Part shown: positions 3-3,902 of the stretch, in pieces
Layout of the letters: every line of letters begins with the position of its first letter
Position numbering within the stretch: the first letter of the stretch is position 1
DNA from: Candidatus Thorarchaeota archaeon
GTDB taxonomy: Archaea; Asgardarchaeota; Thorarchaeia; Thorarchaeales; Thorarchaeaceae
DNA length: 64,000 bases
Assembly: GCA_029858305.1 (NCBI GenBank)
Contig: JAOUFI010000002.1
Coordinates: 32,001 to 96,000 of the forward strand
Direction: 5' to 3'
Made by a program: the position numbers and the translations under genes
The notes under the pieces: generated by a model
Seen by the model: the letters and a program-made list of their open reading frames with translations, nothing else
What the model was told of the DNA's origin: nothing
The model's database searches: none

Positions 3-176
3 TTTCACGACGCATCACGTAGAAGCCAGTTTGTTCTCCTCACACCAGCAAAGAGCACTCATCTTCTAAAGCACGCTGACAAAATACTCGGGATCGTTTC
101 GCCAAATGGTGTGGAACCCTCTATAATAATCGAGAGTCCTAAATTCAAAGGAAAAGAGGAGGGACAGAACAATTGA
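3..176 (+). CDS. SMC-family ATPase, C-terminal fragment (Smc5/6-like); truncated by window start
   Basis: Frame 3 reads FHDASRRSQFVLLTPAKSTHLLKHADKILGIVSPNG...NN*. QFVLLTP matches the Smc5/6-type switch region (Q-x4-TP), and ADKILGI resembles the SMC C-terminal ADxxxGV strand. The TGA overlaps the TTG start of the next gene. Confidence 0.7.
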   Translation, partial: FHDASRRSQFVLLTPAKSTHLLKHADKILGIVSPNGVEPSIIIESPKFKGKEEGQNN

Positions 177-826
177 ATGAGAAGAACACTCTTGAGGAGC
201 GTGTTTTTAAAATCGTACAGGCGGCTCGTTCAGGAGAGATAGATCCACTTGAACTTCGACTATCTGAATCGTACAGAGAGTTGAAGGAGCTCGTAGCCAA
301 GATAGATAATAGGCTTGATATTGACGAGATGCTGAATGAGGTCTTGGGAGTCAAGGTCAGTCGTGTACAAGAATTGGCACGAGTTATTGCATCACCAGAG
401 GTCTATGTAGCTCTTCTGAAAGAGAAATCAGCCCGGGATCTAGCCAAATTATTGATACAGAGGCAACCTGTCGTCATTGGTCATCTCGAGCGTGATTCAC
501 TAAACGGTTCACTAGACAGAATCGTTCAGTTAATTGATGCAATGTCCCGCGAACCACCAGATGATCAAGTACCGAAAATGACCGGTCTTCCAAATGGATA
601 TGCATTCGAAACGGAGGATGCTGTCTTTATCGAGGATCTCGAGAAATTTCTTGAGACGATTCCTCTAGAGGGGAAAGTCATCTTTGATGCCATCATAGAC
701 ACTGATGAACTCGATTTGTTTCTAAAGTACTTTCTATATGTCATCATTCTTGTGTCGAGTGGACGTCTACTCTACAATCCTGCAACCCGCCAACTATGGA
801 AACCTCTTGTACCTGAAGCCACATAA
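173..826 (+). CDS. Kleisin (ScpA/Nse4-like) subunit
   Basis: N-terminal GEIDPLELRL resembles ScpA GEIDPWDIDI; C-terminal FLYVIILVSSGRLLY resembles the kleisin winged-helix FLALLEL..G.I motif; overlaps the SMC stop codon. Confidence 0.65.
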   Translation: MNEKNTLEERVFKIVQAARSGEIDPLELRLSESYRELKELVAKIDNRLDIDEMLNEVLGVKVSRVQELARVIASPEVYVALLKEKSARDLAKLLIQRQPVVIGHLERDSLNGSLDRIVQLIDAMSREPPDDQVPKMTGLPNGYAFETEDAVFIEDLEKFLETIPLEGKVIFDAIIDTDELDLFLKYFLYVIILVSSGRLLYNPATRQLWKPLVPEAT

Positions 827-892: not shown

Positions 893-2233
893 TCAGGCAA
901 CAGCCTCAGCTTGAAGTAAACTCGTGATTTCTATTGGTTCTTCATTTTCTTTTGGTAGTTGAGAATGCAACTTGAGTTTAGCTACTGCTAGGAAGCCTAG
1001 TAATGAAACCACCACAAGGGCCGTAGCTGCAGCGATGAAAGGAGGACTAGTAGAACCGACAGCTTCAGCCCAAACTCCTCCAATCCCCATCCCAATGACT
1101 TGGACAGCTGTAAAGGCAACATTGAGAAGAGCAAACACACGACCACGAAGCTCGTCCTCAACCAGCTCTTGTATTAATACAGTGAGAGGGATGTTCAAGA
1201 TAACATCTACAGCACCAATCATTGCCCATGAAAGCAAAACAGTTACGAAGTCAAAAGCTAGAGCCATCGCAAAGACACCAATACCAGCTAGAAGTCCTGC
1301 AAATGCAATCAGATAGAGTGGCTTCTCGAGCTTCTTCTTCCTACTCAGGTAAATTGCTGCTATTGCTCCTGTTCCTGCTCCTGCACTCAGAAGAAAACCG
1401 ATTTGAGTTGATCCAAGTCCTAGTTCACCCTCAAAAAATGGCATTAATAGTGCATTAAGGATACCCGATGATACTGCTAGCATCATCGCAAACACAAAGA
1501 GAAATGAGAGGATTGCATTTCCTATGACATAACGACCACCCTGAATAATCTGTCCTCGTAATGACTCGTGTTCGATTTGATGTCTCTTGGGTCTAAGATC
1601 TGTGGCAATTCCATGAAGTGCAATAGCTGATAAAGCAAACGTCATTGATGTGACTGCAAAGGCTAGAAAATAATTGGGAGCAAGGAGCGCAACAAGAATA
1701 CCTCCGAGTGGCGGAACAACTAACTGAACAACTTGGAATGTCATCTGAGATAGAGAGTTGGCTGCAACTAATTCATCGCCCTCGACAAGATTAGGAATAG
1801 ATGCGCTCCTTGCTGGGAAGAACCATGCATTTGCGGTTGCATAGATAAATGTCAATATGTAAACCCAATAAATTGTGGGAATAAAGGATGGGAAGTAAAT
1901 TGTAAGTGGAATCATGAGGATAGCTATAGCTCTAACAATATCTGATACAATCATGATTTTCTTTCGATTCCAAAGATCAACATATACTCCAACAAAACCA
2001 GCGAATACAACGATAGGCAAAACTTCCATCATTGTTAGTATCGCCATTGCCAGAGCTGAACCGGTTAGGTCGTACGCATAGAACAAAAGCGCAAGGGCTG
2101 AAATTGCTGTGCCAATATTAGAAACAAATTGACCCGACCATAATCTTGAGAAATCTCGGTGACCAAGTACAGCACGAAATCCTATTGGTCGTTTTTCTCC
2201 ACTGACATCTTCAATAATTTGTGTTTCCATCAC
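893..2233 (-). CDS. MFS transporter, DHA3/MFS_3 (MefA/EntS-like) exporter
   Basis: About 12 hydrophobic segments; RDFSRLWSGQFVSNIG, GVYVDLWNRKKIMIVSDIVR and ELRGRVF motifs. Start is GTG 2233 or ATG 2230. Confidence 0.9.
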   Translation of the reverse strand: MMETQIIEDVSGEKRPIGFRAVLGHRDFSRLWSGQFVSNIGTAISALALLFYAYDLTGSALAMAILTMMEVLPIVVFAGFVGVYVDLWNRKKIMIVSDIVRAIAILMIPLTIYFPSFIPTIYWVYILTFIYATANAWFFPARSASIPNLVEGDELVAANSLSQMTFQVVQLVVPPLGGILVALLAPNYFLAFAVTSMTFALSAIALHGIATDLRPKRHQIEHESLRGQIIQGGRYVIGNAILSFLFVFAMMLAVSSGILNALLMPFFEGELGLGSTQIGFLLSAGAGTGAIAAIYLSRKKKLEKPLYLIAFAGLLAGIGVFAMALAFDFVTVLLSWAMIGAVDVILNIPLTVLIQELVEDELRGRVFALLNVAFTAVQVIGMGIGGVWAEAVGSTSPPFIAAATALVVVSLLGFLAVAKLKLHSQLPKENEEPIEITSLLQAEAVA

Positions 2234-2238
2234 AAATA

Positions 2239-2337
2239 TTATCTCCTGAAATATGCCCAGGCAATCGCTTCAGTTGAGATTGTGGGCTTCGATTTGTTCA
2301 AGATGCGAGGAGTTGGATTGATGATTGTCGGGATCAT
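2239..2337 (-). CDS. Small peptide sORF5, 32 aa: MIPTIINPTPRILNKSKPTISTEAIAWAYFRR
   Basis: ATG preceded by GGAGTTGA; shares the STEAxAxAY..RR motif with sORF1/2; its 3' end AGGAGA is positioned as the SD for the MFS gene. Confidence 0.7.
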   Translation of the reverse strand: MIPTIINPTPRILNKSKPTISTEAIAWAYFRR

Positions 2338-2341
2338 ATTT

Positions 2342-2455
2342 TCAACTCCGAAATTGGATATTATTGAAAATGAAGGAGTCCTTCGATTGAACTTGGACTG
2401 ACCTGTTTTCCTTCGTGACGGAAAGAATGATTGAATTATTTGTTAGCTTCATCAT
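2342..2455 (-). CDS. Small peptide sORF4, 37 aa: MMKLTNNSIILSVTKENRSVQVQSKDSFIFNNIQFRS
   Basis: ATG preceded by SD-like GAGATGTGA; N-terminus MKLTNN resembles MALTTNN of sORF1; tiles between sORF3 and sORF5. Confidence 0.5.
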   Translation of the reverse strand: MMKLTNNSIILSVTKENRSVQVQSKDSFIFNNIQFRS

Positions 2456-2468
2456 TGTTCACATCTCG

Positions 2469-2597
2469 TTATACGGTGGTCACAGGTAATGCGGTTTCTG
2501 AGACTAACTGACCATTCTTATGACCACTAGGTGACCATCGACTGACAAGGTCGGGATCAGAAAGGAGCCAGAAGGTCTGTCGCTCAGAGGTTATCAA
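2469..2597 (-). CDS. Small peptide sORF3, 42 aa: MITSERQTFWLLSDPDLVSRWSPSGHKNGQLVSETALPVTTV
   Basis: TTG start 6 nt after the sORF2 stop, with SD GAGGT; fills the gap in the chain but lacks the shared motif. Confidence 0.35.
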   Translation of the reverse strand: MITSERQTFWLLSDPDLVSRWSPSGHKNGQLVSETALPVTTV

Positions 2598-2603
2598 TAG
2601 GAT

Positions 2604-2705
2604 CTACCTCTTGAAAGTCAAGTAAGCATAGGTCAGAGCATCTGTTGAGAGAGTCTTGTTTTGCTTGTACTTCTGAAGGATTCGGTAGTTTGTTGCTAGA
2701 GCCAT
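2604..2705 (-). CDS. Small peptide sORF2, 33 aa: MALATNYRILQKYKQNKTLSTDALTYAYLTFKR
   Basis: ATG 7 nt after the sORF1 stop, with strong SD AGGAGGT; paralog of sORF1 (MALxTNxR...LSTxAxxYAYL). Confidence 0.75.
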   Translation of the reverse strand: MALATNYRILQKYKQNKTLSTDALTYAYLTFKR

Positions 2706-2712
2706 AGTTGTT

Positions 2713-2814
2713 TTACCTCCTGTAGAGATATGCGTATGCTACAGCCTCGGTGGAGAGGGGATTGCGATCGTGCTTGTGCACGCGTTCAGTTCGGTTGTTA
2801 GTTGTCAGAGCCAT
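2713..2814 (-). CDS. Small peptide sORF1, 33 aa: MALTTNNRTERVHKHDRNPLSTEAVAYAYLYRR
   Basis: First ATG about 33 nt downstream of a TATATATA box; paralog of sORF2 and sORF5. Confidence 0.75.
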   Translation of the reverse strand: MALTTNNRTERVHKHDRNPLSTEAVAYAYLYRR

Positions 2815-2846
2815 AATAGTTCACAAGAAATACTGCTCAGAATTAG

Positions 2847-2854
2847 TATATATA
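2847..2854 (-). promoter_or_regulatory. TATA box for the sORF array-MFS transcript
   Basis: TATATATA at archaeal promoter spacing upstream of the sORF1 ATG (2814). Confidence 0.55.
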
Positions 2855-2969
2855 GCGAAGCCACTTCTGAGGGACACAAGATGAAGTCACAAGATGTGAC
2901 TATCTCTAGAGCGCGCTAATATCTTCGGAGGTCATACTTTATACCGGATGATTCTGAGAGGATCTAGAA

Positions 2970-3470
2970 ATGAACGAGTATGCAGTGCTTGTTAAACTTC
3001 TAACAAGAACAGGAACACCCATTGGAGCAAGCATTGAGGACATGCTCGATGCCCTTGGGCTCCCCGAAGAGCCAGGGCGGCACATTCTTTTCAAAAAATT
3101 AAGCGGCCTTCATACTAGACTCAAACCTATCGGTCTGTACATCAAACATAATCCAGTATCAGGAGTCTTCTACCTTGATACTTTAAATGATGCTGCTATT
3201 GCCCATGAAAACACTGCGCTGCCTGATAGACTAGCTGCGACACTTCTCATTGTCATCACACTTGCATACCAAGAGGGAGGATGGGTCAGCATTGACAGAG
3301 TACGAGAGTTCAGAAAGAAGGCTTTGCAGGGCGTTATGGTAGACCTTCGCGAACTTCAAAATCAGGGCTATGTCGAGATTGAGCAGGATAAGAAGCGAGT
3401 TAGGCTTGGAACTAGAGTGCCTTTTGAGATCGATTATGAGGCATTCTTCAAGGAACTTACAGAGAATTAG
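2970..3470 (+). CDS. KITE-like tandem winged-helix protein (ScpB/Nse1/Nse3-like)
   Basis: 166 aa with two predicted WH domains (LHTRLKPIGLYIKH..FYL; LRELQNQGYVEIE..VRLGTR), a pattern typical of KITE proteins; near SMC and kleisin genes. Confidence 0.6.
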   Translation: MNEYAVLVKLLTRTGTPIGASIEDMLDALGLPEEPGRHILFKKLSGLHTRLKPIGLYIKHNPVSGVFYLDTLNDAAIAHENTALPDRLAATLLIVITLAYQEGGWVSIDRVREFRKKALQGVMVDLRELQNQGYVEIEQDKKRVRLGTRVPFEIDYEAFFKELTEN

Positions 3471-3542
3471 AGCTTCATAAAAAAGATGGTGGCTTCGTTA
3501 GTTTTATCAGTAGTCAACAGCGACTCATAATTGGTTAGAATT

Positions 3543-3902
3543 ATGTCCCACAGGCGTTCACTTCGATTTTCACAGTCGACCTGCCCAGTATGCGGGGGCA
3601 AAGAAGTCGCTCGAGATGACCTAAAAGGAGACCTTCTTTGCACCAACTGCGGACATATTGTTACCCGAACTGAGTCAAGATCTGTTGGTAAGTTCGACAT
3701 AGCTCAGCATCTTAAAAGAAACGGAAAGATGACTTTCCCAAGACTAAAGGAAGTTACCGGAGCCTCTGATGACAAGCTCTTTGGTGTTCTCTCCGGTATG
3801 GAGAGCATGGATCTCGTCACACAGCTAGCTGGACAATATTCCTTGACAAAGAAAGGGCAAAGATGGTACCGTCAGAGACTGGGTCAAGAATGGGGATACT
3901 GA
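3543..3902 (+). CDS. TFIIB-type zinc ribbon fused to a winged-helix domain
   Basis: CPVCGG...DDLKGDLLCTNCGHIV is a TFB-like ribbon; the C-terminal wHTH ends YSLTKKGQ. ATG 3543 preferred over TTG 3531. Confidence 0.7.
   Translation: MSHRRSLRFSQSTCPVCGGKEVARDDLKGDLLCTNCGHIVTRTESRSVGKFDIAQHLKRNGKMTFPRLKEVTGASDDKLFGVLSGMESMDLVTQLAGQYSLTKKGQRWYRQRLGQEWGY

Follow-up and report, generated by a model that had tools for sequence, protein, structure and literature searches.

A multi-copy family of micro-proteins encoded in tandem ahead of transporter genes, and on its own, in Thorarchaeia

What is a chain of five very small open reading frames (ORFs) doing directly ahead of a transporter gene in an Asgard archaeon? 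The question is raised by a 64,000-nucleotide stretch of the genome of a Candidatus Thorarchaeota archaeon (GenBank assembly GCA_029858305.1, contig JAOUFI010000002.1, positions 32,001 to 96,000 of the forward strand), referred to here as the window; its contig, C119, is one of 205 in a 3.04-Mb genome. A reading made from the letters alone (the sequence-only reading) had described the array upstream of a gene of the major facilitator superfamily (MFS), and had proposed either a ribosome-sensing relay that controls an efflux pump or a family of signaling or antimicrobial peptides with a dedicated exporter. The follow-up reported here upholds the part of that interpretation in which the ORFs are real, conserved, selected as peptides, and linked to MFS genes, and removes the part in which they serve this one pump, since the array is not specific to it. 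The features concerned, in window coordinates, are the following.

2815-2902, minus strand: putative promoter/operator and short leader, with a palindrome, a half-site, a TATA box, and a Shine-Dalgarno (SD)-like word
2713-2814, minus strand: small ORF 1 (sORF1), 33 amino acids, family member of the 'long' type
2604-2705, minus strand: sORF2, 33 amino acids, family member, an extra copy
2469-2597, minus strand: sORF3, 42 amino acids, TTG start, running across a conserved nucleic-acid element at 2477-2537
2342-2455, minus strand: sORF4, 37 amino acids, degenerate family member
2239-2337, minus strand: sORF5, 32 amino acids, family member of the 'short' type
893-2233, minus strand: MFS gene, 446 amino acids, DHA3-like, with a GTG start at 2233 and the next ATG at 2230

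A small-protein family and the selection acting on it

The description of five ORFs of 32-42 amino acids that tile positions 2239-2814 and lead into the MFS gene was borne out, the successive gaps being 7, 6, 13, 4, and 5 nucleotides. Complete tiling of this sort (ORFs of at least 28 amino acids, gaps of at most 15 nucleotides) arose by chance in 2 of 2000 dinucleotide-preserving shuffles of the 581-nucleotide region. Three of the ORFs, sORF1, sORF2, and sORF5, share a C-terminal motif, as had been noticed, and are recovered as members by a hidden Markov model (HMM) of the family with expectation values (E) of 2.2e-18 (the best match in the genome), 3.5e-16, and 2.3e-13, respectively. To these must be added sORF4 as a fourth, degenerate paralogue: its own match in the window has an E of 0.29, but its positional orthologues in six species (L025, L029, L034, L037, L051, and L054) have the same N-terminal half, end in the full family motif, and match the family at E 1e-5 to 5e-3, which marks sORF4 as a decaying member.

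Membership is defined here by a length of 28-37 amino acids, an M-A-L start, a basic middle, and a C-terminal S-T-x-A-(I/L/V)-x-(Y/W/R/H)-A-Y behind which come another 3-5 residues, the last of them arginine. The aligned members measure 29-37 amino acids. Their consensus opens with M-A-L, passes through a variable basic middle, and closes with S-T-[D/E]-A-(I/L/V)-x-Y-A-Y-x-x-R-R, and the basic genetic unit is a tandem pair of one 'long' and one 'short' member. Net charge averages +5.2 (range +1 to +9), with 20% lysine plus arginine and 25% threonine, serine, and asparagine; no cysteine occurs in 42 peptides, and no hydrophobic run of about 15 or more residues that might span a membrane was seen when the sequences were read by eye. 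Two possible resemblances were set aside. An E-x-x-x-Y precursor of the kind known for pyrroloquinoline quinone (PQQ) was rejected, as the place of its acidic residue can also be taken by K, R, Q, T, F, G, or A, and a PCNA-binding (PIP-box-like) motif gave no fit by eye.

The family is widespread within its class. A motif scan of the six-frame translation of the window's genome revealed two further loci, on contigs C50 and C205, and an HMM built from eight members retrieved 12 ORFs at E ≤0.01 among 96,400 stop-to-stop segments, distributed over six loci (C119, C50, C205, C155, C32, and C62); the C50 array opens with an sORF that shares 97% identity with sORF1. With an alignment of 42 members, the family was found in 83 of the 87 genomes of the class and in 15 of its 17 genera, giving 508 matches at E ≤0.001, and no internal stop is present among the 150 matches listed. 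It was not found in 16 genomes that represent other families of the phylum. A search of 1.84 billion representative proteins gave 46 matches, of which 44 are small ORFs of 29-63 amino acids or fused gene calls and two are long repeat proteins, read as false positives; in none of the 46 is the motif a domain of a larger protein. The 42 members are all without a match in Pfam, NCBIfam, and PHROGs, the ESM Atlas gave no usable match, and a collection of 15 billion predicted proteins contains relatives, all unnamed, and not sORF1, sORF2, or sORF5 themselves. Two public gene calls, P0019 (88 amino acids) and P0027 (103 amino acids), have a family peptide joined to unrelated sequence; in P0027, the N-terminal portion is similar to a protein encoded divergently from the C62 array, and the fusion could be a gene-calling or assembly artifact at a repeat.

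Selection at the level of the peptide is seen most directly in sORF5, whose orthologues are exactly 32 codons long in 20 of 20 cases. A test of the dN/dS type, which the sequence-only reading had proposed, gave a ratio of nonsynonymous to synonymous differences (pN/pS) of 0.43 in frame versus 1.15 and 1.56 in the two other frames, and the entropy at the three codon positions is 0.76, 0.56, and 1.37, the third being the most variable. By segment, pN/pS is 0.25 in codons 2-6, 0.68 in the middle, and 0.31 in the motif, and the last two codons show no amino-acid change at all. Synonymous divergence within the motif is high (pS 0.72). The synonymous codon differences first taken as a sign of selection on the peptide likewise hold across 59 different DNA versions of the motif, taken from this genome and from related loci, in which the conserved serine is encoded 50 times by TCN and 7 times by AGY, and threonine, alanine, and tyrosine use all of their codons. 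Members that stand alone behave in the same way, with a pN/pS of 0.55 in frame versus 1.05-1.08 off frame for nine stand-alone 'short' peptides. A value of 0.74 for the C-terminus of sORF1 comes from a stop-anchored alignment in which members are shifted by one residue, and is not relied on. It is thus clear that sORF1, sORF2, and sORF5 are real, conserved genes under purifying selection for their peptides.

These data leave next to no room for a reading in which the conservation belongs to RNA or DNA elements and the ORFs have arisen by chance, a possibility given almost no weight for the array as a whole. For sORF1, sORF2, and sORF5 it is already contradicted by the third-position variation, the switches between serine codon families, the preserved frame, and the high pS of the motif. 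Searches of Rfam point the same way, with no match at E up to 1 in positions 2100-3000 of the window and none at the gathering score in four other arrays of the genome. It holds true for sORF3 only. Conservation at the DNA level with breaks in the frame had been named in advance as an observation that would tell against peptide genes, and such breaks were found in sORF3, whose frame changes between species, and not in the other ORFs.

The element within sORF3 consists of three direct copies of a 6-7-nucleotide word, spaced 11-12 nucleotides apart, plus one inverted copy, and the word resembles the half-site of the palindrome in the promoter region described below. It aligns without gaps over about 60 nucleotides in 16-17 relatives, and its invariant positions lack a 3-nucleotide periodicity. 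A 1-nucleotide indel just upstream shifts the reading frame of the element in 7 of 17 relatives, and despite this shift an ORF of about 40 codons still spans it in every case. sORF3 does not match the family HMM and is not a member, and a conserved peptide is ruled out by those 7 relatives, in which the frame changes with no gap in the DNA of the element. Nor is the element an internal promoter copy, as the TATA-like word lies only about 17 nucleotides from the next ATG, and a structured RNA is without support (fold z +0.38 relative to shuffles, covariation term 0.13, and an invariant outer stem). We read sORF3 as a putative regulatory DNA (or RNA) element that is translated across, rather than as a peptide gene; a DNA operator is only slightly favored, because of the 11-12-nucleotide phasing.

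The transporter gene, its junction with the array, and the control region

The predicted transporter matches the Pfam models MFS_1 (PF07690; 7.6e-38, 130.7 bits versus a cut-off of 33.4) and MFS_3 (PF05977; 1.4e-28, 100.1 bits versus a cut-off of 27). The nearest NCBIfam model, TIGR00900 (2.A.1.21, H+ antiporter subfamily, DHA3), is matched at 2.3e-64 with 218 bits, below its cut-off of 319.6, and the models for EntS, Mef(A/B/C), Tap, and Tet(V) give weaker matches, all far below their cut-offs. The earlier assignment of the pump to DHA3 is therefore retained as DHA3-like, with Mef, EntS, and Tap among the nearest named families, and dropped as a firm placement, since the cut-off of no named equivalog is reached.

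Orthologues of the gene (E ≤1e-100) are present in 44 of the 87 genomes and 5 of the 17 genera, and 33 loci (the window plus 32 orthologous loci, with MFS identities of 58-93%) were examined, L041, L052, and L053 being excluded as their upstream DNA is missing. A search for the peptides upstream of orthologous MFS genes had been suggested as a check, and it succeeded at 33 of 33 loci, each having one or more family sORFs (E ≤0.007) and 32 having two or more, orthologues of sORF1 among them. The control, 3203 segments from 20 loci of MFS homologues outside Thorarchaeota, returned no family match. In its minimal form the locus comprises the promoter, a 'long' member, a 'short' member, and the MFS gene, which other species extend by the sORF3 element, by sORF4, or by a further 'long' copy; this further copy (sORF2 in the window) is confined among MFS loci to the window and its closest relative, L021.

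The junction between array and transporter is unusually regular. The stop of the last sORF lies exactly 5 nucleotides ahead of the MFS start in 21 of the 33 loci, 10 of these 21 having GTG or TTG as the start, and the distance ranges from -7 to +13 nucleotides in 32 loci, the remaining locus having no canonical start there. The SD-like strings reported at or just after the ORF ends are present and are complementary to the 3' end of the genome's own 16S ribosomal RNA. Each cistron has its own start, and each successive one finds its SD within the terminal arginine codons of the one before. The original caution that the terminal R-R may partly reflect the SD was right: with few exceptions the final codon is AGG, and the penultimate one is often AGG or CGG, codons that account for only 13% (AGG) and 7% (CGG) of the arginine codons in long ORFs, and the use of these minor codons indicates that the terminal arginines double as the ribosome-binding signal of the next cistron. 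In sORF5, the last two arginine codons are the SD of the MFS gene. There is no room for a promoter between the two, and the RNA of the junction folds no more stably than shuffled sequence (z -0.98) and offers no alternative structure. The array and the MFS gene would accordingly be co-transcribed as one operon, and translation of the transporter probably depends on that of sORF5, as the short spacer and the SD within sORF5 suggest.

Termination-reinitiation pairs of archaea and bacteria offer the closest anatomical parallel, having a very short or negative intergenic distance and an SD inside the upstream gene (PMC10666635; see also PMC6728339). According to the first of these reports, such coupling needs overlaps or very short distances, the typical distance in coupled pairs is -4 or -1 nucleotides, and coupled pairs are enriched for subunits of heteromeric complexes (PMC10666635). 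The distances found here are likewise overlapping or very short, but differ in being +5 nucleotides in most loci and in having chained micro-ORFs as the upstream partners of a putative coupling.

The region ahead of the array is still more conserved than the array itself. The TATA box seen before sORF1 was confirmed as an 8-bp word at 2847-2854; it is accompanied by an SD-like word at 2821-2824, a 15-bp palindrome at 2886-2900 (6-bp arms, 3-bp spacer), and a further copy of the half-site at 2872-2878. The roughly 90 nucleotides before the first ATG form an ungapped alignment of 33 sequences (30 from MFS-orthologue loci, the window among them, and three from other arrays of this genome) and are better conserved than the peptides, and the alignment stays ungapped although the MFS proteins are only 58-93% identical. 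Of the 26 other arrays surveyed, 17 have this palindrome 83-86 nucleotides ahead of their first ATG. These features suggest that positions 2815-2902 function as a promoter and an operator. A second type of promoter, with a different palindrome abutting the TATA box, precedes another subset of cassettes (L098, L095, and L077). At L098 it lies at about 1680-1740, and divergent to it is a gene of about 250 amino acids (L098:736-1497; G000 C155 20736-21497, minus strand) whose product has, by eye, the look of an ArsR/TrmB-type helix-turn-helix protein, making the two a candidate regulator-operator pair.

Leader-peptide translational attenuation controls the bacterial resistance genes erm, cat, cmlA, and mef (mef/mel), which are induced through short upstream peptides. 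By analogy, the array may be a cis-acting, ribosome-sensing relay in which the ribosome is paused or arrested at the stop codon, or close to it, by the C-terminal motif of the nascent peptide, whether or not a small molecule or drug acts as the signal. Pausing would gate re-initiation down the chain into the efflux pump, since the next SD and start lie within the footprint of the terminating ribosome, and the promoter and peptide pair would constitute a portable sensor cassette. Much of the anatomy is consistent with such a relay, which is considered a real possibility although we lean against it. The arrays always come first in their units, at the 5' end and right after the conserved promoter; the motif is 3-5 residues from the stop; the peptides, at 28-37 amino acids, are of a size to occupy the exit tunnel, and their middle is nearly neutral (pN/pS 0.68); the 5-nucleotide spacer is fixed and the MFS starts are often weak; and the pump resembles the Mef, Tap, and Tet(V) drug exporters. 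As in the bacterial attenuators, short ORFs directly precede a DHA3/Mef-type pump, probably on the same transcript, and carry their motif near the stop. The differences are that two to five ORFs stand in series here, that the host is an archaeon, that no hairpin sequesters the ribosome-binding site (the junction fold being no more stable than chance), that the SD lies within the last codons of the leader, and that the family is multi-copy and mostly stand-alone, with selection evident where nothing follows. This last difference is taken up again below.

The MFS cassette is flanked by two conserved genes, at 173-826 (plus strand, 217 amino acids) and 2970-3470 (plus strand, 166 amino acids), for neither of which a Pfam or NCBIfam match was found. 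The 166-amino-acid gene is the divergent neighbor of the array in at least eight related loci, where it gives an antisense ORF signature. Further along, at 3531-3902 (plus strand), a 123-amino-acid protein is encoded that has a TFIIB-type zinc ribbon below the cut-off.

Arrays elsewhere in the class

A survey of 27 arrays, seven in this genome and 20 in four other genomes, placed the MFS locus in perspective. In about 15 of the 27, no larger gene comes after the array. An MFS gene, from one or the other of two families, follows in five, a GNAT acetyltransferase gene in one, and an S41 peptidase gene in one. Because the family is far wider in its distribution (83 of 87 genomes) than the MFS gene of the window (44 of 87), and because most arrays stand alone, the peptides are not merely leaders of this pump. 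The S41 peptidase was considered as a processing partner and ruled out, as the link holds in 1 of 10 loci.

The second MFS family comprises proteins of about 480-530 amino acids that are unrelated by BLASTP to the transporter of the window (E 0.17). It is present in 72 of the 87 genomes and in 15 of the 17 genera, and the peptide family also occurs in 15 of the 17 genera. All four genomes that lack the peptides lack this transporter family as well; one of the four, G086 (80% complete), holds an orthologue of the MFS gene of the window, at the start of a contig. As the genomes are related and incomplete, this co-distribution cannot serve as a statistical test. At 25 of 30 loci of the second family, the 1.5 kb upstream contains family sORFs on the same strand. 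Of the remaining five, two are cut by contig ends, and in the other three the gene is the second of a tandem, with the array before the first. Translational coupling is not implied here, because the array lies 400-550 nucleotides upstream. In one case, L080 (G049 C1 ~570380-573970, minus strand), two copies of promoter plus 'short' member stand in series, the first immediately ahead of an S41 peptidase gene and the next ahead of a gene from the second MFS family.

A typical stand-alone array consists of a 'long' member, a 'short' member, and a third, unrelated sORF that runs into a terminator-like hairpin, with a convergent gene beyond. The third position is held by a second family of small ORFs (34-40 amino acids), which always follows the 'long' and 'short' pair in stand-alone cassettes; examples are L097:2204-2311 (G000 C205 97204-97311) and L098:1971-2093 (G000 C155 21971-22093), and further loci are L076, L077, L081-L086, L092, and L095. 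The codons for its conserved acidic-hydrophobic C-terminus extend over the 5' arm and the loop of the hairpin, with the 3' arm just after the stop, and both peptide and hairpin seem to be constrained, since the loop codons differ synonymously between copies.

Stand-alone cassettes may also be multiplied within a genome. For example, G065 has five nearly identical cassettes of about 410 bp (L081-L085), each comprising the promoter and three sORFs, in unrelated flanks; their borders are sharp, starting exactly at the palindrome and ending just after the third sORF, and neither terminal inverted repeats nor target duplications were seen at these borders. In other genomes, many family matches lie at contig ends, as expected of a repeat, which would break assemblies. 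Within the genome of the window, two loci agree to about 99% over the promoter and sORF1. Upstream of the stand-alone array on C50 is a gene for a 139-amino-acid membrane protein (G000 C50 8104-8523), and among 30 loci of orthologues of that gene (L101-L130) the pair is present downstream in 16 and absent in 14. In another genus, the same pair behind the 139-amino-acid gene continues into the MFS gene. Because the C50-type pair runs into the MFS gene there, and because the copies are nearly identical, the pump and a copy of the promoter and sORF1 seem to have moved within the genus of the window. A tRNA-like sequence suspected beside the C50 array was not confirmed.

It would be possible to see in these observations a promoter cassette that has been dispersed, either like a mobile element or through gene conversion, whose main role is transcriptional and whose ORFs are secondary, and which drives neighboring genes or interferes with them, including by antisense transcription into convergent genes. 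The five sharp-bordered copies in G065, the near identity of promoter and sORF1 at two loci, the matches at contig ends, the regular position of stand-alone cassettes opposite a convergent gene, and the arrival of a cassette before the S41 peptidase in one lineage only would all fit. Such an account is nevertheless very unlikely: selection at the peptide level shows that the ORFs are not incidental, and the borders have neither the terminal repeats or duplications of a transposon nor an associated transposase or integrase.

The stand-alone arrays also speak against the ribosome-sensing relay introduced above. With nothing downstream to regulate, they are still purified by selection, the N-terminus included (pN/pS 0.24), and copies of the family far outnumber the genes that could be regulated. 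Added to this are the absence of an alternative RNA structure at the junction, the 400-550 nucleotides between the arrays and the second MFS family, a distance from motif to stop that varies between subtypes, and the lack of an archaeal precedent in the literature searched. The position of arrays before the second MFS family, the GNAT gene, and the S41 peptidase gene does speak for a relay that can be carried from gene to gene. In its fullest form, this would be a portable Thorarchaeia sensor cassette, in which an operator-controlled promoter and an arrest-type pair of micro-ORFs gate termination-reinitiation into pumps and other genes, a proposal that we regard as doubtful. If true, it would be the first leader-peptide or ribosome-sensing control of expression described in archaea, and would stand in the lineage closest to eukaryotes, where control by upstream ORFs is common.

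What the peptides may do, and what the family means

If the peptides themselves are the product, one possibility is that they, or a processed fragment of them, are secreted as cationic antimicrobials or signals, with the MFS protein as exporter or immunity pump. Multi-peptide leaderless bacteriocins exist, and MFS exporters are known for microcin C and bottromycin. The net charge of +1 to +9 and the aromatic C-terminal stretch, the many diverging paralogues with conserved ends and a variable middle, the multi-copy cassettes, and the recurrent tie to two MFS families are all in keeping with export. Even so, we regard secretion as unlikely. The peptides have no signal or leader cleavage motif and no cysteine, and no maturase or processing gene is consistently adjacent to them, the S41 link being confined to a single locus in ten and the neighbors in the window having no enzyme domain in a Pfam and NCBIfam search; half of the peptide-bearing genomes lack this MFS gene; and no MFS carrier is known that transports an unmodified 30-residue peptide. 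Operons of the aureocin A70 type, which encode multi-peptide leaderless bacteriocins and ABC transporters, share with the arrays the tandem genes for cationic, leaderless peptides of about 30 residues beside a transporter gene, but their peptides are hydrophobic or amphipathic throughout, whereas the N-terminal two thirds are hydrophilic here and the transporter belongs to the MFS. Likewise, the cyanobactin and MSDIN precursors of ribosomally synthesized and post-translationally modified peptides resemble the family in length (about 30-37 amino acids), in number of paralogues, and in having conserved termini around a variable center, but here no maturase is nearby, cysteine is absent, and proline does not consistently flank the center.

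The reading that is favored, tentatively, is that the family consists of trans-acting micro-proteins that work with MFS transporters. The stand-alone copies under selection, the conservation of the N-terminus, and the high copy number speak for a product that may act in trans, as does the spread of the family over 15 of the 17 genera when this MFS reaches only 5. A link with MFS transport is suggested by the arrays ahead of two unrelated transporter families, by the equal number of genera that hold the peptides and the second of these families, and by the empty control loci outside Thorarchaeota. The peptides would be the primary, trans-acting products of the array, and ribosomes that end the last peptide would re-initiate on, or be handed over to, the pump gene, so that the pump would be made only when the peptides are made, and at a small fraction of their rate. 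In the form predicted to be most likely, the peptides would dock on the cytoplasmic side of MFS transporters as soluble modulators or partners, similar to MntS or SgrT of Escherichia coli, to which they are not homologous, and sORF3 would be no more than an ORF by which ribosomes pass over a regulatory DNA or RNA element. The pairs MntS-MntP and SgrT-PtsG provide a reported precedent in which genetics connects a transporter with a protein of 30-45 residues that has no membrane segment (PMC4361602; PMC10710835). There is no sequence similarity, and MntS and SgrT are encoded by single-copy genes, whereas the present family is tandem and its binding to transporters putative.

Several observations weigh against a partnership with transporters. 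The peptides are hydrophilic and have no membrane segment; the arrays of the second MFS family are uncoupled from their transporter; none of the six arrays of G065 adjoins an MFS gene; and the co-distribution counts come from related, incomplete genomes and are not independent. Moreover, a motif that adjoins the stop and a length that suits the exit tunnel fit a cis-acting nascent peptide equally well, and the single arrays before the GNAT and S41 peptidase genes fit a portable regulatory cassette better.

Taken as a whole, small ORFs coupled to transporter genes are of known kinds, and the protein family itself is new. In the literature searched, no description of the family or of leader-peptide control in archaea was found. 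Small proteins are largely missing from the annotation of archaea, and here several hundred copies of one family extend across a single Asgard class with unusually clear selection at the level of translation. The peptides are short, synthesizable objects for experiments on organisms that are hard to grow, and the fixed 5-nucleotide junction is a natural test case for translational coupling outside the haloarchaea. Whichever reading is true, be it a partner of transporters, a ribosome-sensing leader, or a secreted peptide, the family would be the first of its kind for Asgard archaea.

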